This document shows positions 2,352-64,000 of a stretch of 64,000 nucleotides of DNA, one piece after another (position 1 is the first letter of the stretch; the number at the start of each line of letters is the position of its first letter). The DNA lies in assembly GCA_002495675.1 (NCBI GenBank), contig DAGH01000002.1:24259-88258 (forward strand). The letters are read 5' to 3'. This DNA comes from Euryarchaeota archaeon UBA182. Its GTDB lineage: Archaea; Thermoplasmatota; Poseidoniia; Poseidoniales; Thalassarchaeaceae. A program made the position numbers and the translations under genes. A model generated the notes under the pieces. That model was given only the letters and a program-made list of their open reading frames with translations. It ran no database searches and was not told the DNA's origin.

Positions 2352-3851
2352 TCAAATCACTTCCTGGTCTTCTACATACATTTTCAACCGATTTCTGAGA
2401 GCCTCGTGCAACCACATTCCACCTCTGATTTCGATCATAAGACCCCTAGAGATCAGATTTTTCGGAGGCCCACCGGTAACCCCCGCCAACTTCGCCAGCT
2501 CAACCCATGGAACAGGCCTCCTCTGTTTAGCAAGGACCAGTAACAAGGATTTTTCTTCCGCAGGAAGGACTTCTACGATCTCTGAGTCCAAGAACTTGAC
2601 CCAATCAGGATGTTCTATCTCACCATACATTTCCAACAATTCGATGGCTAACGGATGACCACCTGTCCTTTCATGAAGTACTTCAGAAGACATTTTCTCG
2701 ACTATGTCCATATCTTGAATCCACTCGCTCAATTCATCCTCTGTAAGTCCACTTAATGCAATCTCAGTCACTCTTCCACGAGTCACTACATCCCTCCTGT
2801 CGTAAAAGTCAGGGGACCTTCTCGATATGCCAATTATCTTGGAATCGCAAGCCTCTGCAACCTGTGTCAATACTCCAATGAGACGAACTCCATTTTCATC
2901 CAAATTGTGAATATCATCAAGGATTAGTAGTATTTTTTTCTTGTACCCGAATTTATTATCTTCGTCCAACAGAGTCGCAGTCAATCTTCGTCTGAGTAAA
3001 TCCTGATCCATATTATTCCCTGGCGATGGAAGGGTGGAGATCAGGTCATATGGATCCTCGATATTACGTCCACTATCACTCAACACCCTGTGAATTATAC
3101 TAGTCGCCAATCCTGTCGCAGTATCCCATGACTGGCATGGATAATACATGGTCAAGACCCCTTCAAAACCCCCTTTTTTTGTTTGAAACCAGTCAGAAAT
3201 TAGGGTAGTTTTACCACAGCCAGCAATCCCAGTTATCATGCAAAGGCATTTATTCTCTGTGTACCATGAATTTAATCGTCTTCTTTCTTCCTTTCGTCCG
3301 TGAATTTTCCGGCTTTTTGGAGGATCTGTGTGATAGGTTGCATGGGCACCTGCCATCATATTAATCGATCCAGGGGGTCTACTTTTGCTTTGAATAGGTC
3401 CGAACCGAATATCGCCGTAGTTGAGAGCCCCCTCATGTTGAGCATGCATCAAAATAGATAGTAGATTTAGCTCAGCGTTTAGCCTGTCAGATGCTTCGTT
3501 AGCCGGAATTTCAAGAATTCTTCCCCGTTTGTCCCTCAATAGCACCATTGTTTCACCTAATCTCGATTTGATTGCACTTGCCATTTCTACTCCGAGAGGT
3601 GTGAGATGCCAGACCCTTTGCCTCCTCATTTCTCCCCTTACCTGGCGTGTACTTTGCGCCACAATCCCCGTCGACACTAAGTCTCTGATGCTCCTTGAAA
3701 CATTTGGAGGATGAACAGCGCATGCCGTGGCAATACCACGGCGAGTAATCTCGATATTCACAGTGTGCATGTCGACTGTAGAGTGGTGATCCAATAGGTG
3801 TAGCAGAATTCTATCGGCGACCGCCACGTTGACCTTGGACCCGGTCGGCAT
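2352..3851 (-). CDS. STAND (NB-ARC/AP-ATPase-like) NTPase with an N-terminal winged-helix DNA-binding domain
   Basis: The N-terminus is MarR/ArsR-like (PPNVSRSIRDLVSTGIV...RVWHLTPLG). P-loop GIAGCGKTTL, Walker B ILLILDDIHN, IIGISRR and GGHPLAIELL resemble the NB-ARC GxGKTT / LVLDDVW / TTR / GLPLA series. No TPR or WD40 sensor repeats are present. Confidence 0.6.
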   Translation of the reverse strand: MPTGSKVNVAVADRILLHLLDHHSTVDMHTVNIEITRRGIATACAVHPPNVSRSIRDLVSTGIVAQSTRQVRGEMRRQRVWHLTPLGVEMASAIKSRLGETMVLLRDKRGRILEIPANEASDRLNAELNLLSILMHAQHEGALNYGDIRFGPIQSKSRPPGSINMMAGAHATYHTDPPKSRKIHGRKEERRRLNSWYTENKCLCMITGIAGCGKTTLISDWFQTKKGGFEGVLTMYYPCQSWDTATGLATSIIHRVLSDSGRNIEDPYDLISTLPSPGNNMDQDLLRRRLTATLLDEDNKFGYKKKILLILDDIHNLDENGVRLIGVLTQVAEACDSKIIGISRRSPDFYDRRDVVTRGRVTEIALSGLTEDELSEWIQDMDIVEKMSSEVLHERTGGHPLAIELLEMYGEIEHPDWVKFLDSEIVEVLPAEEKSLLLVLAKQRRPVPWVELAKLAGVTGGPPKNLISRGLMIEIRGGMWLHEALRNRLKMYVEDQEVI

Positions 3852-5961: not shown

Positions 5962-7032
5962 GTGATGCAAATGGAAGGCCACCATCACATAAACGAAATA
6001 GCATCATTCGTAAGGCAATTACCGACACAAATAACATCAGTTAAGCATGATGAGAATGATTTAATTGCAGGAGACAAGGGTGGAATAGTATCAAAATGGT
6101 GTATATCTGATGGTAGAAGATCATGGTCGAGACAACTGGATCCTTCTGTCTCTGACATACATATTGTGAACAATCTAGTGATGGTTGCTAGTGGAAAATA
6201 TCTCTATTGTCTTACACTAGAGGAGGGCAGCACCCTATGGTCAGTAAGTTTTGATGGAGCGTGCGACCTACTGTCCCCCAACGAGAAAACAATCTGGGTG
6301 ACATCCTCAGTTTATGAAATTGAAATTGGTCATTATGTTGAATGCAAAGTACAAGAGTTAGACATACAAAAGGGAGTCTTGATTCAAAGCGTTGACTTAC
6401 CCTCAAAGGCGTGGTCCATAGAAAGCATAGGATCTGATTGCATATTGGGTTTAGGAAGGCCAAATCCAGGAGTGTATTTCATACGCAATCGTACTGGAAA
6501 ACTTGAGCCGATAACTGACGCACCAGATTTGCCAATTGTTGAATCAATCAGGTCCGTCAAGGAAAGCATTTCCTTTCTTACAGCATCAGGAACCGCTTTT
6601 GAGATTGATAGCCGAGGGCGTTTACAAAACATAGTGGATGAAGCAACTTGCGTTGGCTATCGACATGACGGGACATGGTTGTGTCAGTCCGCAAAAGGAA
6701 AAAATGGGTTGAATGTAAACGACGATGCTCCAACAATGCTGGTCGAAGCAAAATTCGTAGTCTGCTCAGAGACTATGACGGCGATCATGACTAAATCTGA
6801 TCCCACTAAGGGAATAATATACACTGATAATCTGAATTTAAGGTGGTTTCACAGCGGTGAAGTGACATCCTACAGCGGAAATGGTGACAGAATTTCCATA
6901 GGCTACTCTACCGGGGAAATAATTCTCCTAGAGTCAAGAGTTGTGGAAAATAGAGCTCAGGCCGAGGGTGTAAATGGAGAAGATAGGTCTGAAATCAGAG
7001 CAAGGTTAAGGATGTTAAGATTTGAGGATTAG
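5962..7032 (+). CDS. Beta-propeller (PQQ/WD40-like) repeat protein, function unknown
   Basis: Repeated G.l..l.l.dG...W-type blades (GGIVSKWCISDGRRSW, YCLTLEEGSTLWS). The C-terminus is a charged helix. No catalytic motif was recognised. Confidence 0.45.
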   Translation: MMQMEGHHHINEIASFVRQLPTQITSVKHDENDLIAGDKGGIVSKWCISDGRRSWSRQLDPSVSDIHIVNNLVMVASGKYLYCLTLEEGSTLWSVSFDGACDLLSPNEKTIWVTSSVYEIEIGHYVECKVQELDIQKGVLIQSVDLPSKAWSIESIGSDCILGLGRPNPGVYFIRNRTGKLEPITDAPDLPIVESIRSVKESISFLTASGTAFEIDSRGRLQNIVDEATCVGYRHDGTWLCQSAKGKNGLNVNDDAPTMLVEAKFVVCSETMTAIMTKSDPTKGIIYTDNLNLRWFHSGEVTSYSGNGDRISIGYSTGEIILLESRVVENRAQAEGVNGEDRSEIRARLRMLRFED

Positions 7033-7099
7033 CACTAGCATTCTTTAGTAGAAATAGAGGTGGATAGACCCCTATTTCCAGTGGACTGCTCCAATATTA

Positions 7100-7740
7100 C
7101 AGAAAGATTTATGGACTACCCCCTGCCCTGTTGCTCTTGCCGCTCCGATGGAGTGGTGTGGGAGGGCTTCGGCACCTCCCGCGGGCCACAACAACCGATC
7201 TAAATGATCGGAGCGGTAGAATCAGCAGTAAAACGCTGAGGATACGCCCTAACACATGTGGGTGATAGGGCAGTGGGAGAACCAAGAGTAAGCAAACCGG
7301 ACGCAAGGAAGGAAAGCTCATCATGGGGGACACTAGGGAAAACAAAACCGAACCTTTCGAGGGGAAAACACAAACCGAACTAGAAGACCATCCCACAGAG
7401 GTGCAGCGAACAAGGGGGAGGAGACAATCCTGGAAGCGTAGTGCGGGGAAAACCTGTGGTAAAAAACAGGAAGGAAACGCATCAGGAACAAGAGCGGAGA
7501 AATTCGTGGAGGACTGGCATCGGACGAAGAGGAAAATTGGGATACTACCAATGGACAAAAATCGTACGCGGAAACACCAAGGGAGACCATGGAGTAGTCG
7601 TCAAACGGTGAAGGCGGACAAGTAGCGCCGGAATCATCTACCCGGGAACACCCGGGCCCTCGGGCCCGGGTGAACCCCAACCGCGGAGTCAGCAGGGGGT
7701 CGCTCCCCCATAGGCAGCCCCCTGTTGCTCCCACCTGTCC
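7100..7740 (+). ncRNA. Candidate large structured RNA of unknown class (boundaries approximate)
   Basis: About 800 nt lack a credible ORF. The + strand is purine-rich with many GAAA motifs. Hairpins readable by eye: 7160-7180 (UUCG tetraloop), 7195-7211, 7453-7470, a 7544-7554/7587-7598 helix, 7651-7670 (8-bp GC stem, CUCG loop) and 7695-7709. Short matches to RNase P RNA segments exist, but the canonical GGAAAGUCC is absent. Confidence 0.4.
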
Positions 7741-7836
7741 ATTCGGACATTCAGTGGTCCTCTCCAACAGACTATCAATCATTTCCCTCAAATTCAGGGT
7801 AATCCATGTGTTTTCACGATGTTATACCAATGCGGT

Positions 7837-9429
7837 TTATTCAGTCGGGCTAGTCATCTCCTCCGGCTTTACCCATTTATCAAAATCATCTCCACTAATG
7901 CCCATTGCAACAGCTGCCTCCCGAAGTGTGGTTGCTTTCGCGTGTGCATGTTTTGCGATTTTGGCTGCCATATCATACCCCACATGAGGATTTAGTGCCG
8001 TCACAAGCATCAACGACCTCTCTACTAGGTTAGAAATCCTTTCTTCGTTTGCCTTCAACCCGGATACACACCTCTCAGAGAATGATAAACATGAGTCTGA
8101 TAACAATTGAACGGAATGGAGAACGTTGTAGATGATCATCGGCTTGTACACGTTCAATTCGAAATTACCCTGGCTTGCTCCTATTGTGACAGCAGTGTGA
8201 TTTCCCATTGTCTGGCAAGCGACCATCGTGATTGCCTCGGCTTGTGTTGGATTCACCTTTCCTGGCATTATGCTGGAACCTGGCTCATTTTCTGGAAGTG
8301 AAAGCTCTCCTAACCCAGATCTTGGACCTGACCCCATCCACCTGATATCATTGGCTATTTTGAGAAGGCTCGTTGCTAATCCACTCATTGAACTCGAAGC
8401 TTCCAATAACCCGTCATGACCAGCCAATGCTGAAAATTTATTTTCCACGGGGTAAAACCCCAATCCAGTAGATTCGGAAATTAAATCACAAACCAATTCT
8501 GAAAAACCAACCTTGGTATTCAAGCCAGTACCCACCGCAGTACCTCCTATTGCCAGTGCGAGCAGACCATCACGAGCACGTTCAATCCGCGATATATCTG
8601 AATCCAACATGGCCACGTATCCTGAGAATTCCTGCCCCAATGTGAGTGGGACCGCGTCCATGAGATGAGTCCTACCTATCTTGACTATCTCGTTGAATTC
8701 CTCGCGCTTCCGATCTAACTCATCTCGGAGTTTTTTCACAGATGGCAAGAGATAGTGGTGTATCTCTTCTGCAGCTGCAATGTGCATGGCCGTTGGGAAT
8801 GTATCATTGCTGGATTGGGACATGTTGACATGGTCGTTTGGATGCACTGGTTCTTTGCTTCCAACTAGACCACCCGCAATCTGAATCGAGCGATTAGATA
8901 TCACTTCATTTGCGTTCATGTTCGTTTGAGTTCCAGATCCTGTTTGCCAGATTCTGAGAGGAAAATGAGCATCCAATGAACCAGATACAACTTCTTCGCT
9001 AGCCGCACATATCAACGAGCCAATGTCTGCATCGAGATTTCCTAATTCGACATTTGCCTCGGCAGTCGCCTTCTTTAGAATTCCAAAGGCCCTTATCATT
9101 GCTCTCGGCATGGTATCGTTCCCAATATTGAAATTTTCAAGAGATCTAGAGGTCTGTGCACCATAATATGCATTTTTGGGGACTTTCACAACACCCATCG
9201 AGTCAACTTCATCACGATAGCCCTCATTTCCTAGGCTATCGATGGGTTTCGCCGGAGTTGTGGCCGGCTTGGGTGTAGATCCGCTTAGGCCACTTTCTAT
9301 CAGCCGGGTTATGGTGGCTGATCTGCCATTAGACCGTCCTCTTCCAACTTTCTTGTCAAGTCTTACAGCTAGGCTCTCAGGTATGCTGATACTGATTATT
9401 CGACGGTCACCTGCTCTATGTTTGGCCAT
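7837..9429 (-). CDS. fumC: Class II fumarate hydratase with an N-terminal ribbon-helix-helix (CopG-like) extension
   Basis: [20 protein letters not shown] is a FumC-type signature. [25 protein letters not shown] aligns to the FumC N-terminus. About 65 extra N-terminal residues read [20 protein letters not shown]...[13 protein letters not shown] (a strand-helix-helix pattern). They are joined to the enzyme by a Pro/Thr/Lys linker. Confidence 0.85.
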
Positions 9430-11107: not shown

Positions 11108-14100
11108 TTGATTGGTGTGGTGTATGCATTTGGCCCGACTAGAGAAACCAGTCGCTTATCAGCCGAATATGCCGCATACCTCGATCTAATCGAGGCAGAG
11201 ACCGACCTAGTGTACAAAATCGCAAATGAAGCGAGATCTAAGGGAATAGACTTCAAGACAGAGGTGGAAATCCCCAGGGCGAAAGACCTAGCCAGCAGGA
11301 CTGTCCGATTGTTGGAAAGATATCTCAGGCCCGAGGAGGATAGTAGCCCAATCCAGATAGAGGATCGATTGAGAGATCTCTTGGATACTATGGATCGAGA
11401 ATCAGCTTCTATTACCATAGCGAGAGAATCTGCAAAAATGATGCATGAACTGACAGGGGATTTACAGAAATCAATAGATACGGGCCTGAGAGTTGGTTTA
11501 GCGGTTCTGACTGAGGCAGTTTTAGTCGCTCCATTAGAAGGAATTGGTGAAGTAAGAATATTGAACAATCATGGAGACGGGTCCTCCTTTCTATCCATCG
11601 ATTTTTGTGGTCCGATAAGAGCTGCAGGTGGTACGGCACAGGCCATGGGCGTGTTGATTGGGGATGTGATACGACGAGAACTTGGGATAGAGAGATATCA
11701 GCCAACTGAGGGAGAAGTAGAACGAGTCAAAGAAGAATTTGGGCTTTACAGAGGAGGCCTACAATACAAGCCACCCCCCGAGGAAGTCGACATGATCGTA
11801 CGGGCATGTCCAGTGATGGTTAATGGTGAGGGAACCGAGAGGATAGAGGTAGCAGGATATCGCGAGGTTCCTAATATTGAGGGTTCAAGAATCAGACAGG
11901 GAGTCCTACTTGTTATCGCTGAGGGTTTGTGTCTGAAAGCACCAAAGATCAAGAAACACACAGACAGATTGGGGGTAGAGGGATGGGACTTCATCGATGT
12001 CTTAGCCTCAAAGGGTGAAGACGCTAATACATCAGAATCAAAAACAAAGCAAAGGCAAGTGAAACCCGACTCTCGATACATGGGGGACATAATTGCCGGT
12101 AGACCTGTTTTTGGAGAGCCTTCGAAACCAGGCGGCTTTAGGCTCAGATATGGCAGAAGTAGGACAACAGGACTCGCTGCTGCAGGGTTGAATCCTGCAA
12201 GTATGCACGCTATGGGGGGCTTCTTATCCGTAGGCACTCAGATGAAGATAGAGCGGCCAGGAAAGGCATGTGCAGTCACTCCTACCTCAGGGATTGACGG
12301 TCCGCTCGTACTCTTGAAAGATGGAACATTCACTATGGTTCACGATGAAGTTTCGTGGAATGCATTAAGCGACCAAATAAGTGTAATCTGGGACGCTGGG
12401 GAAATTTTGATCGGGTTTGGCGAGTTCTTAGAAAATAACAAGGAACTCGTACCCTCAGGCTACAACCGTGATTGGTGGGCCAGTGAGCTCGCCTCCAAAA
12501 TCAATATGCCAGCAAAGTTGGACTCATTCATTGGCATATTGAATGCCGACCCTTCCCTGTTTCCAAAAGGCCTTCCTTTCAATGGCGCTATTTCGAGGGG
12601 TGGAGAACCTGAGCATGAGCGGGAAACCAGAAAACGAGATTGGAATAGGAAGTTGAAGAAACTAGACTTAACATGGGATCAAGTGATTTCGATTTCAGAC
12701 AAATTCGGAACCGCAATCCCGCCCCCATGGAACTTATGGTGGTCGGATTTACCTGTGGCTTTGATCCCCTCTTTGTGCCAAGCAATGCGACATTCAATCA
12801 AACAAAATGGAAAATTAATCATACCCATGAACCAGTCAGAGGATGCTATTGAGGGCATCAATCAAGAACATATGAGTAACATCGAGGAATATGGAGTGGT
12901 AAGATATTCATTGATGTCACTCGGATTACAACACAAATTGGAGAAAGACAACATTGTAATCGAAAGTTACTGGGAACCATTATGCGAACTCTTTGATACT
13001 GAGAATGGTAGTTATGAAATTTCAGAGATCTTGATAGAAACAGAACGCAGGCTGAAGCAGATAGATGAGGCAAAGTCGATCGTGCTCTCAGAGAGCAAGA
13101 GGGCGTCTGAGATTGAAAAACTTAGGACGGAAAGAAGAATTAGAGCCGAAACAACGGCTAGACAGAGGAACCTGGGCGTGGAGGAGACCGAAGCAATCGG
13201 AATTGCTGCGGCTGCAGAGATAGAGGACCCAGGGCCGATGAATAAAGAGGAATTCGAACAGGCCCTGTCCACATTAGACGACAACGAGGTTGAGCAATCC
13301 TTGTGGGTCGTGAGAAAAATATCACCTCACAGATGGGAGGATGCTGTTCCAACCAGAATCGGCGCACGAATGGGGAGGCCAGAAAAAGCCGAAAGAAGAG
13401 AAATGAAACAATTCACACACGCTTTGTACCCAATAGGGAATAATGGTGGCCCACAGAGATTGCTAGATCAGATCGGTAAGGGCGCACTGAGCGTAGACGT
13501 TAGCATACGCCGCTGCATAAATTGTGGAAGGGACACACACGAGATTCGTTGCCGCCACGATTATGGTGATGGCTCCCCCCCTTGCAATGGAAGGACGGAA
13601 ATCAGAAGGAAAAAAAGTACAGATCGAAGACTCGGGGAGAAAAGGAATATTCAATTCACAGCCCTTCTTGAAGCGGCTAGAAAAAACCTCAATCTGAACT
13701 CATTACCTCGACCAATCAAAGCAACAAGACAGCTTGAGTCGAGGTTGCAAACCCCTGAGCCTTTGGAAAAGGGAATCTTGAGGGCGCTGCATGACGTATC
13801 AGTAAACAAAGATGGAACATCGAGGTTCGATATGATTGACGTCCCAATAACCCATTTTCGACCACTCGAGATAGGCACACCTTGGAGGAGATTGGTGGAA
13901 TTGGGATACTCAGAGGACATGGACGGCAATGAATTGAAATCTGACGATCAGGTGTTGGAAATCTTCCCACAAGACATCATTCTATCCTCAAATGCAGAAC
14001 TGCATCTATCAAGCACCTGCAAGTTCGTAGATGATGAATTGACCAAGATTTACGGAATGGACCCATTCTTCAACTATGAATCAAAAAAGGATCTTGTTGG

Positions 14101-28818: not shown

Positions 28819-28892
28819 TGGAGCACGAGCCGGGATTTGCACCCGGGTACACGGATCTGCAGTCCGTTGCATAGCTACTCTGCCACTCGTGC
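28819..28892 (-). tRNA. tRNA-Cys (GCA) with encoded CCA
   Basis: The reverse complement reads GCACGAG-UG-GCAG...UGC-A-ACGGA-CUGCAGA-UCCGU-GUAC-CCGGG-UGCAAAU-CCCGG-CUCGUGC-U-CCA. It has a 7-bp acceptor stem, 5-bp anticodon and T stems, anticodon GCA and discriminator U73. Confidence 0.88.
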
Positions 28893-43327: not shown

Positions 43328-43519
43328 ATGGAACAGGGAACTGTCAAGTGGTTCAATCAGAAAAAAGGGTATGGGTTCATCGAAAGGGAAGGGGCGGACG
43401 ACCTCTTTGTTCACATCTCAGAGGTAGATGGAACTATTCGCGATGGCGACTCCGTGGAATTCGAAGTCGCAGAGGGTCCAAAGGGACTCAACGCGGTTAA
43501 GGTGTCGAAGACTGAGTAA
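43328..43519 (+). CDS. cspA: Cold-shock domain protein
   Basis: [15 protein letters not shown] (RNP1) and DLFVHIS (RNP2). Size is 63 aa. Confidence 0.95.
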
Positions 43520-43522
43520 TCA

Positions 43523-44224
43523 TTAACTCGCAATCGATTTGAGTGCGTAGTTGTGGCGAAGCACCTCATCTATGATGACCCAGTCGGGAGTGGTCCCATC
43601 TATCCAATCATATCTGTGCCCCGGAATCATCCGCCAATCTCCTGGGAGGCTCTCGAGTATTTGCTTCCCTTTGCGAATGCTCCTGTATTGTGATTCAGGA
43701 TCTGATCCAGGTAAGTCGACCCGACCCATTCCGTTGGTGAATAGCAGATCACCCGCATGAAACACTCCATGCCCATGAATGGTGACGTGGCCTGGGGCAT
43801 GACCCGGGGTGTGTGTGACCGTCAGGCTAAGTCTCCCTGCCTTCCACTCAACCCCCTCCAGCGGTGGTTGGGCCCATGTGTTGGTGAAGTCAACCCTCTC
43901 AAACACGGGGTGACCTAGCAAGTCTGGGACACGAGCATCCTCATGTCCCCAGACCTCAAGCCTAGGAAACAACCTCATCATCTCTTGGTAGCCCGATGCA
44001 TGATCCCTGTGGGTGTGAGTGTAGAGTAGATGGGTTGGCTCCAATCCATCCTCCAACAGCCCCTCTCTCCATCTTGACGCGTCGAATGGATCAACTATTG
44101 CTACGATATTCGCATCCCTATCGATGAACGCCGTATTCATATTCAAGTAGGGCCCCATTAGGGTCACCCAGACCTCTGTGCCATCATTTAGGACCATCTT
44201 ATCGAACTCTCCGTCTCCCAGCAT
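43523..44224 (-). CDS. MBL-fold metallo-hydrolase (glyoxalase II-like)
   Basis: LYTHTHRDHASG (HxHxDH) and TPGHAPGH. ATG 44222-44224 is preceded by GGAGGGGT. The longer track ORF would overlap leuS. Confidence 0.8.
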   Translation of the reverse strand: MLGDGEFDKMVLNDGTEVWVTLMGPYLNMNTAFIDRDANIVAIVDPFDASRWREGLLEDGLEPTHLLYTHTHRDHASGYQEMMRLFPRLEVWGHEDARVPDLLGHPVFERVDFTNTWAQPPLEGVEWKAGRLSLTVTHTPGHAPGHVTIHGHGVFHAGDLLFTNGMGRVDLPGSDPESQYRSIRKGKQILESLPGDWRMIPGHRYDWIDGTTPDWVIIDEVLRHNYALKSIAS

Positions 44225-44290
44225 GACCCCTCCGTACCTACGGCACCTCAAAGAAGTGACCTGCGATCGCAGGCACGAAGGAGGCATACG

Positions 44291-47146
44291 ATGAGGTACG
44301 ACCACACTGAAATCGAACTCCGATGGCAAGAGGTCTGGGACAGCAAAAATGTGTTTCAGGCCAAGGTCGATCACAACAAGCCTAAGTTCTACTGCCTGGA
44401 GATGTTCCCCTACCCGTCCGGGAACATGCACATGGGCCATGTACGCAACTACTCCATAGGGGACGCAATGGCTAGATTTCAGAGAATGATGGGCAAGAAC
44501 GTGCTTTATCCAATGGGCTACGACTCATTTGGAATGCCGGCTGAGAACGCTGCAAAAAAAGAACGAGGACACCCAGCAGACGTGACTGTCCGCAATATTT
44601 CCAGCATTAAGTCAGACCAGAAGAGGATGGGGTACTCCTATGATTGGGGGCGACAGTTCGCAACATCAAGTGTTGAATATTACAAATGGAATCAATCGTT
44701 GTTTCTCGACTTCCATGACAAAGGACTGGTCGAGAGGAGATCTGCTCCGGTGAATTGGTGCGTCGATTGTGACACAGTCCTCGCAAATGAACAGGTCAAG
44801 AACAACAGATGTTGGAGATGTGGATTGGAGGTGATTCAACGAGACATGTCCCAATGGTTCCTTCGCATGACTGAGTACTCCGACGAGCTACTCGAATCCT
44901 TGGATGAGATAGTATTCCCAGAAAATGTGAAGGCGATGCAGAGGAATTGGATAGGCAGGTCCAGAGGCGCCGAGATTCGTTTCCCTATCGAGGATAGTGA
45001 TGAGCAGATAGCCTGCTTCACAACCCGGCCAGACACAATCTTTGGAGTCACCTTCCTAACTCTGTCCCCAGAACACGAACTATGCCCAATCCTTTGCGAT
45101 GGTACTGATTGGGAACATGGATGGATTGAACTTCGGGACGAATGCGCCAAGCTCTCTGAATTCGAGCGAATCAACCTACTCAAGGAGAAGAAAGGCGTGT
45201 TCCTCGGCAGATATGCATTGAACCCGATGAGTGGTGAGAGGATTCCAATCTATGCAGGGAACTTCGTAGTCGCAGGCTATGGAACAGGAGCTGTGATGGC
45301 AGTCCCCGGCCATGACGAAAGAGATTTCGAATTCGCCAAAAAGTACGGGCTGGAGATACGAACAGTCCTCCAGAATGACTCAGATGAGTATGAGGATTTG
45401 GAGTCGAAATCAGCCTTCACGGGGTATGGACCGATGATCGGCTCGGCCAAACCGGGATTGGACGGCTTGGTCGGTGAAGAGGCTAAGTCTGCCGTAATTT
45501 CATTGTTGGAACAGGAAGAATCGGGAGTCGGGACGACACAATATCGACTAAGAGATTGGCTCTTGAGCCGGCAGAGATTCTGGGGCACTCCGATTCCGAT
45601 GATCCATTGTGAGTCATGCGGGACCGTTCAGGTTCCCAGGGAGGACCTCCCGGTGACTCTGCCGTTAGACTTGAAATTCACAGAAGAACAGGGTGGAAAC
45701 CCCTTGGCCAGCCACGAGAAATTTTGCGAGGTGAAGTGCCCAGAATGCGGAATTGAAGCCAGACGTGAGACAGATACTATGGACACGTTCTACGATTCCT
45801 CTTGGTACTTCATGAGATTCTGTGATGCTGATAACTCAGAACTTCCATTTTCAAGGAAGTCAGTTGATTATTGGATGGGCGACGGCGTAGACCTCTACAT
45901 AGGTGGTATCGAGCACGCTGTCATGCACTTGCTCTATGCACGATTCTTCACTAAGGCGACTCGGGACATGGGAATGAACTCTGTCGGGGAGCCGTTCGGT
46001 AGACTGGTCTGCCAAGGGATGCTGAATGCCCCGGCCCCATACTGCAGCTCGTGCAATGCGGAGTATCATGTTGACTTTGAAGGCCAGCCATGCCCTAGTT
46101 GTGGTGATACCTTGGGAGCAAGATCCGCGAAGATGAGCAAATCTTTGGGCAACACTGTCAGTCCAGGTGAAATGGTGGAAAAATACGGAGCAGACACTGT
46201 ACGCCTGTTCATACTCTTCGGGGCAAATCCAGAGGCAGGTATGGAATGGTCTGACACAGCAATAGACTCCAATCATCGTCATTTGGTAAGCATCATTGAC
46301 GCATTTGAAGCATCACTCAGTATGAGGGAATCGGTGAAGGAGATTGACGAATGGCTTTTGGCAAAGGGGAGGAATAACATGGGCAGATGGATCTCTTCAA
46401 TGGAAAATGTAAGTCTGAGGGAAGGTGTGATGATTAGCCATTTCGAGATGCTGTCCGATTGGCAGTGGTACATCAGGAGAGGTGGTTGCGATAGAGATTC
46501 TGCGTTGGGTTACATGTCGATGTGGGCCCAGATGATTGCGCCCGCTACACCACATATCGCAGAGGAGCTCTGGATGAAAATCGGTGGCCATGGCATTCTT
46601 TCCAGAAAGGAACTCAATCCAACTGATGCTTTATCAGAGGATAAGACACTCCTTGCAGAGGAAAATTACCTCAAATCAGTTATTGACACATCACGTAATC
46701 TATTGACATTGGCTCAGAGACATTCTGACTCACCACTTCAGAACATGGTGATACAAACAGCACCTTCATGGGCTCAAGACCTCGCATGTGAAGCCATCTC
46801 GTTATCTAGACAGAGCTTCAACTTTGACGAGCTTGGCATGGACTACATAAAGTCGCATACTACTTTCACATCATCGGAGAACAAAGGACAAGTCATGCAG
46901 ATGTGGTCCACTATCACAAGAGGGTCAAAGAAGAAGCGAGGTAAGATACAGACATGGACCGACGAGGAAAAAACACTGGTGTCGATACCTGATAAGGAAA
47001 TCCACATACTCGAAAATAACCGTCAGTTCATCGCAGCAAGCCTTGGAATAAATCAAGTTGAGGTTTATGAGGCAGGATCGGGAGATGATGTTGGTGGGAA
47101 GGCAGGTTTTGCATTACCATTAGAACCCGGCTTAGCTTTCATATGA
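44291..47146 (+). CDS. leuS: Leucyl-tRNA synthetase (archaeal type)
   Basis: PYPSGNMHMGH (HIGH) and KMSKSLGN (KMSKS). A CP1 editing domain is present. Size is 951 aa. Confidence 0.95.
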   Translation: MRYDHTEIELRWQEVWDSKNVFQAKVDHNKPKFYCLEMFPYPSGNMHMGHVRNYSIGDAMARFQRMMGKNVLYPMGYDSFGMPAENAAKKERGHPADVTVRNISSIKSDQKRMGYSYDWGRQFATSSVEYYKWNQSLFLDFHDKGLVERRSAPVNWCVDCDTVLANEQVKNNRCWRCGLEVIQRDMSQWFLRMTEYSDELLESLDEIVFPENVKAMQRNWIGRSRGAEIRFPIEDSDEQIACFTTRPDTIFGVTFLTLSPEHELCPILCDGTDWEHGWIELRDECAKLSEFERINLLKEKKGVFLGRYALNPMSGERIPIYAGNFVVAGYGTGAVMAVPGHDERDFEFAKKYGLEIRTVLQNDSDEYEDLESKSAFTGYGPMIGSAKPGLDGLVGEEAKSAVISLLEQEESGVGTTQYRLRDWLLSRQRFWGTPIPMIHCESCGTVQVPREDLPVTLPLDLKFTEEQGGNPLASHEKFCEVKCPECGIEARRETDTMDTFYDSSWYFMRFCDADNSELPFSRKSVDYWMGDGVDLYIGGIEHAVMHLLYARFFTKATRDMGMNSVGEPFGRLVCQGMLNAPAPYCSSCNAEYHVDFEGQPCPSCGDTLGARSAKMSKSLGNTVSPGEMVEKYGADTVRLFILFGANPEAGMEWSDTAIDSNHRHLVSIIDAFEASLSMRESVKEIDEWLLAKGRNNMGRWISSMENVSLREGVMISHFEMLSDWQWYIRRGGCDRDSALGYMSMWAQMIAPATPHIAEELWMKIGGHGILSRKELNPTDALSEDKTLLAEENYLKSVIDTSRNLLTLAQRHSDSPLQNMVIQTAPSWAQDLACEAISLSRQSFNFDELGMDYIKSHTTFTSSENKGQVMQMWSTITRGSKKKRGKIQTWTDEEKTLVSIPDKEIHILENNRQFIAASLGINQVEVYEAGSGDDVGGKAGFALPLEPGLAFI

Positions 47147-62142: not shown

Positions 62143-62208
62143 TTAGACAATGGAATCAGTTTGCACGCATTGTAACGAACATCAACACATCTTCTTAATT
62201 ATAGGATC

Positions 62209-64000
62209 ATGAAAGCCAGAGGTTCAATGAGGGGGGCCCAAGTCCACTTTTCCAGACACAGGAGCCCCCCTGTGTATGCGATTGCAATCGTCTTGTTGAT
62301 GATATCAATGCCATGGTCCACAACAGTAGATTTCCGTGAAGAGCCTGCTAAATTTCAGTCGAGCAACACTAATTGGGGAGCATCCGGTAGCGTAGACACC
62401 GGCTGGTTGACCGTGGGTTCGGAATCAACTGGGTCGTCCACAACCATAGTACAACACCCTCCCGGAGCATCCATTGAAAACATGACTTTTGAGATCGGAG
62501 TCAATGGTTCTTTGGGAATTTGTGCCCAAGACCCCATACTAACCTTAGTTGATGCTAATCAGGAAATTTTTGATGGAACCGGAATTGGTGGATTTGGATG
62601 CAAACAGGGCTACTCGCCTGATGATGTGCTTGATGGCTATTTAGACCCATATTCGAACTCTCAAGTCGGTTTGTTACTCCCCACCGGAGCCACGCTGACT
62701 GATATGGTAATTGAAGCAATGCGTCCAGCCTCGCCCAGGCTATCCCCATCATTACCCAACCTTGTTGTCCACGACCTGGGCCATGATACTTCCTCGGGTA
62801 GGACTTTCATACTTGCTGACGATGATCTCCTTGTAATTGATGAAACTGTCTCAAATCCAATAGTACATGTTGAGTCCATATCGGCAACTGAGATACAGGT
62901 GATTCAGTCGGAGGACCTTCTTGTTGCGCTGTCAACTGACGGGAGTGTACACTACTATAGATTGAGTAATCTGGAATACCTATCATCGCATTTTTTGAAC
63001 GATACCAATGGTCGCCCTGCAAACTTCGAATGGCAGGAGAACAAACCCGCAAGTTTGTTCTTGGATTCAGAAAACAGAACGTGGATATCGAATGGCTGCC
63101 ACATCCTCTGGAGGGATTCAAATGCCTCACTTGAGTCATACCATTTCGATGACGTCTGTACAGGCTCAAACGATGCAATAATATCCACCATATACGCAAC
63201 AGGAAACAAACTTCTGGCAGGGACTACCGGAACTGGATTTGTGATGATTGACACAAGCAATGATGCTAATTCAACAATGGTACTTTCAAATGCAAGCTTC
63301 TTCTCTCCAACCACTTCTCCATCAGTTGTTTCCTACAGTGTGACCTCAATTGAGATTCTCGATGATCAAATACTTGTTTCGGGGGAGGGTGGAGTAGATC
63401 GATTTCACATTCCCTCCGATGCATGGTTGAGTCCATGGACGACTTCAAATTGGCTCGATTCCAACGACGTTCTGAAAGTAATCACATTGGAGAATTATGC
63501 TTATGTTGTGACACTTTCTAAAATTCACAGGTACGATTCGACCGTTCTTGCCTTCACAGGGGCCATAACGTCAAATCAGGCCAATCTCACAGAATTTGAC
63601 AGAGTCTTCTCTTGGCCGACTGCAAACCAAGGAATCGCTGCTTCTGACGGCGCAGGATCCCTTGCCAAGATAGTTGACATGATTGCTATCGAGCCTCTAG
63701 TTTTAGCCAGCGGGCCAGCAATACTCGAACCACAGGTCGTTTCGGTGGTTAATGCCCCATCTGGAAAACAGGCTTGGGTTGCGTCTGGCAGTGAAATTGA
63801 TAGATTTGACGAAGAATCCAAGAGGTGGCTTGGGGTAATAGACTATTCAAACGATGGTATCGATTCGGAAATTACTGACGTGATTCAGATTGATGCTCAA
63901 ATGGTAATAGCATCAACATCGGGTCACGGAATCATCCAGATTGACCCAACAGATGGAGCACTCATTGGCACAGTGTCCGGATCTGATGTCGCAGCAATAG
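62209..64000 (+). CDS. Large secreted/surface protein, N-terminal ~597 aa only (runs off the window)
   Basis: My own translation from ATG 62209 has no stop through 64000. The N-terminal signal/anchor is VYAIAIVLLMISMPW. Many N-x-S/T sequons and repetitive beta-strand-like segments follow. It is absent from the ORF track because it is open-ended. Confidence 0.6.
   Translation, partial: MKARGSMRGAQVHFSRHRSPPVYAIAIVLLMISMPWSTTVDFREEPAKFQSSNTNWGASGSVDTGWLTVGSESTGSSTTIVQHPPGASIENMTFEIGVNGSLGICAQDPILTLVDANQEIFDGTGIGGFGCKQGYSPDDVLDGYLDPYSNSQVGLLLPTGATLTDMVIEAMRPASPRLSPSLPNLVVHDLGHDTSSGRTFILADDDLLVIDETVSNPIVHVESISATEIQVIQSEDLLVALSTDGSVHYYRLSNLEYLSSHFLNDTNGRPANFEWQENKPASLFLDSENRTWISNGCHILWRDSNASLESYHFDDVCTGSNDAIISTIYATGNKLLAGTTGTGFVMIDTSNDANSTMVLSNASFFSPTTSPSVVSYSVTSIEILDDQILVSGEGGVDRFHIPSDAWLSPWTTSNWLDSNDVLKVITLENYAYVVTLSKIHRYDSTVLAFTGAITSNQANLTEFDRVFSWPTANQGIAASDGAGSLAKIVDMIAIEPLVLASGPAILEPQVVSVVNAPSGKQAWVASGSEIDRFDEESKRWLGVIDYSNDGIDSEITDVIQIDAQMVIASTSGHGIIQIDPTDGALIGTVSGSDVAAI

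Follow-up and report, generated by a model that had tools for sequence, protein, structure and literature searches.

To our knowledge, about a dozen classes of large (over 500 nucleotides, nt), highly structured non-coding RNA (ncRNA) are recognized outside ribosomal RNA, nearly all of them bacterial, and the earlier large RNAs (RNase P, group I/II introns and the OLE, GOLLD and ROOL assemblies) each opened new biology. Marine Group II (MGII, also written MG-II; Candidatus Poseidoniales) is among the most abundant groups of planktonic archaea, is uncultured and has small, densely packed genomes. Here we analyze a stretch of 64,000 nt from Euryarchaeota archaeon UBA182, referred to as the window throughout, in which a gap of about 800 nt between two convergent genes very probably carries, at ~7139–7788 of the + strand, the single-copy gene for a previously undescribed large structured ncRNA of Candidatus Poseidoniales. 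Searches of the open-access literature turned up no description of a large ncRNA of MGII/Poseidoniales.

OLE RNA (RF01071, about 610 nt, from extremophilic Firmicutes) resembles the RNA described here in size, in its ornate multi-domain fold and in its conserved unpaired nucleotides, and is likewise very highly expressed, single-copy and confined to one lineage; its function was long unknown, and it serves as a ribonucleoprotein (RNP) scaffold (PMC3413148). The two RNAs match in neither sequence nor structure, and OLE is bacterial and encoded in an operon with its partner gene oapA, whereas the present RNA is archaeal, has a promoter of its own and lacks an evident partner. ROOL and GOLLD, at 500–800 nt, are also GNRA-rich with variable peripheral elements and appear as homo-oligomers by cryo-electron microscopy (PMC12286853). 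They are bacterial or phage-associated and patchily distributed, whereas the present RNA, which has no Rfam match, occupies one fixed chromosomal site at all related loci recovered and is absent from viral contigs; its core motif was not found in the IMG/VR viral contigs, which speaks against a viral origin.

Two further RNAs of archaea also invite comparison. Archaeal RNase P RNA of type A (RF00373) is similarly conserved, single-copy, structured and provided with its own promoter, and it, too, often lies under a spurious annotated open reading frame (ORF); it is, however, ~300 nt long, whereas the present RNA measures about 610–650 nt, yields no covariance model match and lacks P4 together with the strands that form the P4 pseudoknot of RNase P RNA (CR-I, GGAAAGUCC; CR-V, ACAGAA..GGCUUA). 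With archaeal signal recognition particle (SRP) RNA (RF01857; ~300 nt, with helices 5, 6 and 8) it shares GNRA-capped helices and purine-rich internal loops, and its module CCGGAC-GCAA-GGAAGG superficially recalls helix 8 of SRP/4.5S RNA; again, there is no covariance model match, RF01857 having matched neither the window, nor the region of the gap, nor the representatives of the four clades of relatives described below. MGII moreover has separate RNAs of both kinds, since PMC5069720 reports nine MG-II RNase P RNAs of 292–306 nt, which match RF00373 and adopt the type A fold, and Rfam-recognized MG-II SRP RNAs of 305–315 nt. The same study (Hou et al. 2016) describes Thalassoarchaea ncRNA 1 (Tan1), which is likewise an orphan structured ncRNA highly abundant in metatranscriptomes and the sole other one reported from MG-II; at 229 nt, and compared here by its published description only, it is far shorter than the 610–650 nt RNA of the window.

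Searches against Rfam 15 (4227 models) placed the locus in no described family. No match was obtained for region 6900–7950 at E ≤ 10 or in representatives of the four clades at E ≤ 1, and at these same respective thresholds the models of OLE, GOLLD, ROOL, HEARO, raiA and group I/II introns were without match in the region and in its homologues. At the gathering threshold the complete 64-kb window returned only a tRNA-Cys, with no match to the RNase P and SRP models, and an sR38 match within the neighboring fumarase gene was a chance one. Inspection by eye for box C/D, box H/ACA and K-turn motifs revealed nothing conserved. The tRNA-Cys (GCA), at 28819–28892 on the − strand, is an ordinary one and is the sole ARAGORN match in the window.

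The gap itself (7033–7836) lies, as the initial annotation had stated, between convergent stop codons, those of a 356-amino-acid (aa) beta-propeller gene ending at 7032 on the + strand and of a 530-aa class II fumarase gene ending at 7837 on the − strand. The closest relative, 'Euryarchaeota archaeon UBA558' (Candidatus Poseidoniales, Marine Group II, in the NCBI taxonomy), was reached via a flanking protein and has a syntenic locus, in which the gap is 93.4% identical to that of the window and the flanking genes 86–91%. Further loci were gathered through beta-propeller homologues, down to 26% identity, and through a metagenome scan with a 22-base conserved motif, which retrieved 53 marine contigs. 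In total, this gave 68 related loci, all from marine Candidatus Poseidoniales, which fall into four divergent clades (a–d). The gene order M32 carboxypeptidase, beta-propeller, 800–900-nt gap, convergent fumarase and cyclophilin (PPIase) was found, wherever the flanks are covered, in 66 of 66 loci recovered by pattern or protein. Clade d, which is divergent in the motif, has the syntenic locus as well; it was found by protein and not by motif and therefore constitutes an independent sample (L067 is full length, L068 covers the 5' part only).

Across these clades the neighboring beta-propeller drops to 24–37% aa identity (41–48% at the nt level), whereas the RNA holds 64–80% nt identity along with long invariant blocks. 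Those invariant in all four clades include UUGCCGCU, GAGUGGUGU, GGCCACA, GGAAAAC, AACCG, GGGGAAAAC, UCUACCCGG and CCGCGGAG, several of which are unpaired in the structure model. Within the window, nhmmer finds a single copy of the RNA, at 7047–7789, and no paralogues, and so far as sampled the RNA is confined to Candidatus Poseidoniales.

Covariation among homologues, which the initial annotation had proposed to look for, is strong. Of the 88 pairs that RNAalifold predicted from 43 sequences, 34 have compensatory double changes. The model that we tested was the consensus fold of clade a, the window's own clade, which was projected onto all clades, its pairs counted, and the model then refined. 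Its 153 pairs were set against 153 control pairs obtained by sliding the partners by 1–3 columns. Standard pairs fill 86.7% of cells in the model vs. 36–44% in the slid controls, 59 pairs vs. 9–18 are changed on both sides, and the covariation score is 0.232 vs. 0.04–0.06; the observed values were reached by none of 500 column shuffles, and a first version of the model, tested in the same way, gave a similar outcome. Several helices are 100% paired with clean switches, for example 7274–7278/7391–7395, 7400–7404/7517–7521, 7483–7485/7514–7516 and 7494–7498/7503–7507. These results show that the RNA fold has been maintained in evolution, comprising two 5' hairpins, a large multi-branch body in which no fewer than three domains are closed by helices, and a 14-base-pair (bp) 3' hairpin. 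The region also folds more stably than shuffled sequence: the folding-energy z-score is −4.46 for the + strand of the whole gap, −2.79 for its − strand and −4.83 for the mapped transcript.

Two other approaches to the fold were set aside: RNAalifold with ribosum scoring of the whole alignment gave implausible long-range pairs, and in a brute-force scan of every pair of columns G.U noise prevailed. Two helices were also given up in the course of refinement. The first, 7126–7131/7692–7697, was dropped since its strand 7126–7131 precedes the mapped 5' end and lacks conservation in clade d; the second, GGGC/GUCC at 7183–7186/7737–7740, was replaced by 7183–7189/7754–7760, which is present in all clades.

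The + strand is assigned on the basis of an excess of G.U over A.C cells in the helices (638 vs. 233), the invariant G.U pairs of the first hairpin, and the C(UUCG)G and GNRA tetraloops. On that strand, a presumed archaeal promoter occupies 7101–7114, where a B recognition element (BRE), AGAAAG (7101–7106), is followed by the TATA box ATTTATGG (7107–7114). The motif [CA]GAAA[GCT][GA]TTTA[TA][GT][GTA] is found in nearly all of 39 distinct upstream sequences and in clade d, invariably 24 nt ahead of the G of TTGCCGCU. Between the TATA box and this G (7139), the bases of clade d are not conserved; from the G onward the RNA is. The start at G7139 was thus predicted from promoter spacing before the RNA-derived contigs were examined.

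These contigs were reached via the spurious ORFs of the locus (a 100-aa ORF and its relatives) and comprise 13 short SPAdes contigs of 551–631 nt from 13 ENA assemblies, with coverage of about 7,240–7,380x in three of them and 591x in another. In 11 of the 13, the 5' end falls exactly at 7139, after a non-genomic GGG, CGG or CCGATCTGGG that we interpret as the terminal bases of an Illumina adapter followed by the GGG that a template-switching oligonucleotide contributes; in kits of this type, adapter and template-switch GGG mark the 5' end and the strand of an RNA. Two ORF fragments of the RNA are also present in MERC, a catalogue built by assembly of Tara Oceans metatranscriptomes. The RNA is transcribed with a discrete 5' end and is abundant in environmental RNA samples (library type inferred). 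As this discrete end, G7139, lies 24 nt downstream of the conserved BRE/TATA, we ascribe to the RNA a promoter of its own. The template-switch GGG at the + strand 5' end further supports the strand assignment, as does a U7 tract in clade b, read as a terminator tract, which lies ~30 nt past the invariant GCUCCCACC.

At the other end, the transcript-derived contigs extend to 7719, 7736 or 7746 and then pass into chimeric joins (7746 to 7139 in L069; 7736 to about 7495 in L079; 7719 to 7470 in L080 and L081), which may be chimeras that arose in reverse transcription or in assembly where coverage is very high, or else circular or permuted forms. Based on the contig ends, the clade b U7 tract and a conserved GG[UC][UC]C at 7756–7760, we place the 3' end near 7760–7790 and the RNA gene at 7139–7788. 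With the 3' end so inferred, the RNA is about 610–650 nt long in the window; across clades the distance from the 5' end to CCCACC ranges from about 600 to 740 nt.

Several observations weigh against the reading of this locus as a gene for a large structured RNA. Nucleotide identity of the RNA between clades (0.64–0.67) barely exceeds that of the flanking enzyme genes (0.61–0.64). Since 14 of the 43 sequences also supplied the tested structure, the percentage of paired cells is inflated, although the compensatory changes in other clades are not, and the long-range helices 7183–7189/7754–7760 and 7213–7217/7680–7684 show one-sided variation only or, in clade b, imperfect pairing. For the ERZ4842xxx/ERZ4843xxx assemblies, the adapter and GGG signature is the basis for the library type, which is not documented; the signature marks an RNA 5' end but does not separate primary from processed ends. 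The longest contigs finish in chimeric joins, and the 3' end is unmapped. Finally, no partner protein was identified, and no catalytic or ligand-binding motif was recognized. Keeping these points in mind, we interpret the covariation, the syntenic conservation in four clades, the promoter, the 5' end and the lack of an Rfam match as support for the second of two options left by the initial annotation, namely a different, possibly undescribed large RNA.

Read from 5' to 3' (all features on the + strand), the RNA consists of two 5' hairpins followed by an inferred closing helix, 7183–7189/7754–7760, around all units from 7195 to 7731. The 5'-terminal hairpin GCCGCUCC-GAU-GGAGUGGU (7139–7157) is nearly invariant and is 100% paired in 42 distinct sequences; its two invariant G.U pairs would be A.C if read on the other strand. 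The second hairpin (7158–7182) has a conserved stem base and a variable apex (85% paired), capped in most sequences by UUCG within a C(UUCG)G tetraloop. The two strands of the closing helix, GGGCCAC (7183–7189) and GUGGUCC (7754–7760), pair in both the minimum free energy and the centroid single-sequence folds of 7139–7762. Across relatives this helix is 84.8% paired with one-sided variation, so that compensatory change gives no proof of a pairing inferred from the folds; in 52 of 56 loci there is GGUCC, GGCCC, GGCUC or GAGCCC at most 45 nt past CCCACC, able to pair wholly or in part, by G-C or G.U, with the invariant GGGCC at 7183–7187.

The hairpins that had been read directly from the sequence in the initial annotation all occur within one base of the positions given; as conserved folds they fared differently. 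Those at 7160–7180, 7195–7211 and 7651–7670 are present and are kept in relatives, several via compensatory changes, and the one given as 7453–7470 is kept as well, one base away at 7452–7469. The hairpin CCGAUC-UAAAU-GAUCGG (7195–7211) occurs with other sequences in clades b, c and d, for instance as CCCCGAACUCGGGG in L067. It is followed by UCAGC...GCUGA (7222–7239), where three pairs are changed on both sides (e.g. CAGC/GCUG to CGGC/GCCG), and by CCCUAACAC...GUGAUAGGG (7247–7270), in which all nine pairs show double-sided change within the family and the inner pairs covary cleanly (CG:28/UA:14 and GC:29/AU:12).

Domain II (7274–7395) is closed by helix 7274–7278/7391–7395, which is 100% paired and has three of five pairs covarying, with switches such as AU:24/GC:18 and GC:19/UG:13/CG:5/UA:5. 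It contains the module hairpin CC-GGA-C[GCAA]G-GAA-GG (7297–7312), a GNRA loop over a purine-purine internal loop (tandem G.A), which is 100% paired with an outer pair CG:27/UA:11/UG:4 and covers the AGCAAACCG/GGAAGGAAAG region pointed out in the initial annotation. Clade a, to which the window belongs, has a single copy of this GNRA module, clades b and d have two and clade c has three or four. The module core also recurs as a 13-nt copy, GGACGCAAGGAAG, on the − strand at 3287–3299, inside a 499-aa ORF (2352–3851; an AAA_16 ATPase in syntenic loci), and is probably a chance match in purine-rich codons. Further within domain II lies the most conserved block of the RNA (7337–7378), made up of GGAAAAC..AACCG, a short tetraloop hairpin (7353–7362) and GGGGAAAACA.AAACCG, whose A-rich strands are mostly unpaired in the model. 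The block is identical by construction in the 66 pattern-selected loci; in clade d, the UUCG hairpin at 7353–7362 becomes CUGC-UUAG-GCAG with unchanged flanks.

Domain III (7400–7521) is closed by helix 7400–7404/7517–7521, 100% paired with three covarying pairs, and contains helices 7406–7439, 7441–7482 (with the hairpin 7452–7469) and 7483–7516, the last of which bears a GAAA-capped hairpin at 7494–7507. Pairing reaches 97.6% in 7441–7445/7478–7482 and 99.5% in 7494–7498/7503–7507, where two pairs switch GC:23/AU:19, and clade b has an additional GNRA module in this domain. The variable region that follows (7525–7600) depends on the clade in length and sequence, with insertions in clades b and c. 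Here the initial annotation had paired 7544–7554 with 7587–7598; relatives instead support hairpins 7536–7552 and 7576–7593, through 7536–7540/7548–7552, in which five of five pairs covary and 89% of cells are paired, and 7576–7582/7587–7593.

Towards the 3' end, a two-tier hairpin (7607–7638; 7607–7611/7634–7638 and 7613–7616/7626–7629) is 86–96% paired, one of its pairs varying as GC:16/CG:13/AU:9. It is succeeded by the hairpin CACCCGGGCC-CUCG-GGCCCGGGUG (7644–7677), which stands after UCUACCCGG, invariant in all four clades, and whose stem in clade b is CCUAG/CUAGG or CCUCU/AGAGG. The 14-bp 3' hairpin (7685–7731) pairs GGAG-U-CAGCAGGGGG with CCCCCUGUUGCUCC; it is 90.9% paired and mostly invariant, although in clade d one pair has switched from C-G to U-A by compensatory change and another has gone from G.U to G-C. 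A hairpin proposed earlier at 7695–7709 is not supported as a conserved fold, while the pairing then offered as its alternative holds and extends to these 14 bp (7685–7699 with 7718–7731). Near the 3' end, CUCCCACC (7728–7735) is invariant in every locus covering the region, clade d included, and the 3' tail of clade a carries a clade-specific hairpin, GUCC-AUUC-GGAC (7737–7748), which is GUAC-CAAA-GUAC in clade d and absent from clades b and c.

How such an RNA might work can be proposed only tentatively, and the scheme we favor carries somewhat less than even confidence: the RNA would be a stable architectural molecule that acts in trans, whether at the heart of a lineage-specific RNP or in an RNA-only assembly, comparable to OLE, ROOL and GOLLD. 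Contacts, tertiary or with protein, would be made by the GNRA and UUCG loops and by those A-rich strands that are invariant and mostly unpaired (GGAAAAC..AACCG, GGGGAAAAC, UCUACCCGG and CUCCCACC), and the GNRA/tandem-G.A hairpin modules, which vary in number, would serve at the periphery for docking or protein binding. This proposal draws on the covarying scaffold, the invariant unpaired A-rich strands, the many GNRA loops and the variable number of peripheral modules, and by analogy with ROOL and GOLLD a homo-oligomeric, RNA-only mode of working is plausible.

The number of modules, which ranges from one to four copies between clades, would suit a protein-sequestering 'sponge' like CsrB/RsmZ or 6S, which would titrate an RNA-binding protein through its GGA-rich loops and repeated GNRA/GGA modules, and so would the great abundance of the RNA and its many GGA and Shine-Dalgarno-like motifs. 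Sponge RNAs, however, evolve fast outside their repeats, whereas this RNA keeps long unique blocks and a complex multi-domain fold unchanged throughout the four clades; the window's own clade has one module only, and we know of no CsrA-type partner in archaea, which likewise counts against titration. We therefore regard a sponge as unlikely.

Slightly less probable again is a new large ribozyme, with an active site formed by the conserved unpaired strands. The invariant single-stranded blocks set in a covarying scaffold, the size and conservation, which are akin to those of other large catalytic RNAs, and the occurrence as a single-copy gene in the same position in every related locus recovered would all fit a catalyst. 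Against this stand the lack of any known catalytic core recognized by Rfam and the lack of an evident substrate or flanking exon context, and most of the large orphan RNAs examined to date (OLE, ROOL, GOLLD, raiA) have not turned out to be catalytic (PMC12286853, PMC10861870).

The constant position of the RNA behind the beta-propeller gene, on the same strand and with ~100 nt from stop codon to 7139, raises the question of a long structured 3' untranslated region or processed 3' fragment of the beta-propeller messenger RNA (mRNA), or of a cis element affecting the convergent fumarase gene, and template-switch 5' ends are blind to the difference between a primary and a processed end. In all clades, however, the conserved BRE/TATA has the canonical spacing to 7139; the RNA contigs, even those with coverage of about 7,300x, halt at 7139 and do not enter the upstream gene; and the RNA is far better conserved than that gene. 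Taken together, these observations make a cis-acting or mRNA-derived element improbable.

Gene callers place ORFs of 39–183 aa here in most loci, and NCBI carries MBR89609.1 as a 'hypothetical protein', an annotation which implies that the locus encodes one or more small intrinsically disordered proteins (IDPs). For MG-II, Hou et al. (PMC5069720) describe 'IDP' genes with extremely high expression, one cluster of which is named by contig accession only, for contigs in the range KF900301–KF901297. The called ORFs, however, differ in strand, frame and length between loci and clades; in the window they overlap on both strands, are of low complexity, as had been noted before, and are without a Pfam match. 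No codon phase is seen in the substitutions (chi-square p 0.36–0.99), indels are all 1 nt within a clade and mostly 1 nt between clades, including inside conserved blocks, and the helices covary. Long stop-free frames on both strands would be expected from the U-poor, purine-rich composition alone. These comparisons of sequence show that the RNA is not translated, and a protein-coding origin of the signal is very improbable. Since the + strand ORFs on the RNA translate to Lys/Arg/Glu/Gly-rich strings that would score as disordered, some of the 'IDP mRNAs' of Hou et al. may be this RNA.

That the locus is a highly divergent RNase P RNA, the first option of the initial annotation, is hardly credible: although the RNA is large, conserved and single-copy, and the 9-mers AUAGGGCAG (7265–7273, partly within the hairpin 7247–7270) and AGCAAACCG (7291–7299), which resemble strings of bacterial RNase P RNA, do stand where they had been reported, as does GGAAGGAAAGCUC (7307–7319), the 9-mers are not conserved among homologues (e.g. 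ACAAGGATG and AGCAATTCT in L005), and there is no GGAAAGUCC/P4 element, its nearest string GGAAGGAAAGCUC belonging to the variable-copy GNRA module. The RNA is also about two times as long as archaeal RNase P RNA, neither RF00373 nor any other RNase P model matches 6900–7950 at E ≤ 10 or the four clades at E ≤ 1, and MG-II contigs already carry canonical type A RNase P RNAs (PMC5069720).

As regards the surroundings of the RNA, the purine richness of the + strand noted earlier is evident from an AT skew of 0.5–0.63 over 7200–7600. The transcript at 7139–7746 contains 62.5% purine and 12.7% U, and its core (7201–7640) 68.4% purine; the purine content lies about 3.4 standard deviations above the mean of 600-nt windows, and a stretch of a polymerase gene near 12800–13650 is equally purine-rich. 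The related statement that other gaps in the window are small is roughly right, two seemingly larger ones containing plausible small ORFs. An apparent gap of 971 nt is filled by a 63-aa ORF at 43328–43519 (+), which by eye looks like a cold-shock (CspA-like) protein, and by an ORF at 43523–44440 (−), which, also by eye, looks like a metallo-beta-lactamase-fold protein. Only 62143–62806 (664 nt) is comparably empty, with no convincing ORF (three overlapping ones of 60–72 aa on the − strand) and no Rfam match.

Upstream of the promoter and outside the RNA, an inverted repeat, GAAATAG...CTATTTC (7051–7077), follows the beta-propeller stop codon in all four clades; its arms reach 10 bp in clade b (CAGTGGAAAT-N17-ATTTCCACTG, e.g. 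at about 6166–6202 of L008). It could be an operator or a terminator of the upstream gene. On the opposite side, the N-terminal ~70 aa of the fumarase (7837–9429 on the − strand; this part at about 9220–9429) weakly match the ribbon-helix-helix family CopG (PF01402; E 0.0037, 17.6 bits, under the 20.5 cut-off). The fumarase measures 530–533 aa at every checked locus with a complete gene, so that the N-terminal extension is conserved; fusion of a DNA-binding domain to an enzyme of the tricarboxylic acid cycle is unusual.

The locus is at present mis-annotated as hypothetical proteins, and the RNA probably distorts the statistics of MGII metatranscriptomes; it is also well suited to structure determination and to use as a lineage marker. 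That ~650 nt are kept at every recovered locus, conserved at least as well as the neighboring enzymes and transcribed at a very high level, points to an important cellular function. More speculatively, and with clearly less confidence than we give to an architectural role, this RNA might represent the first large 'ornate' RNA class specific to Archaea, a catalytic or self-assembling machine with a core function unique to Poseidoniales, which would rank among the most abundant non-ribosomal transcripts of these organisms in the surface ocean and may have been read as 'IDP' mRNAs in earlier metatranscriptome studies.

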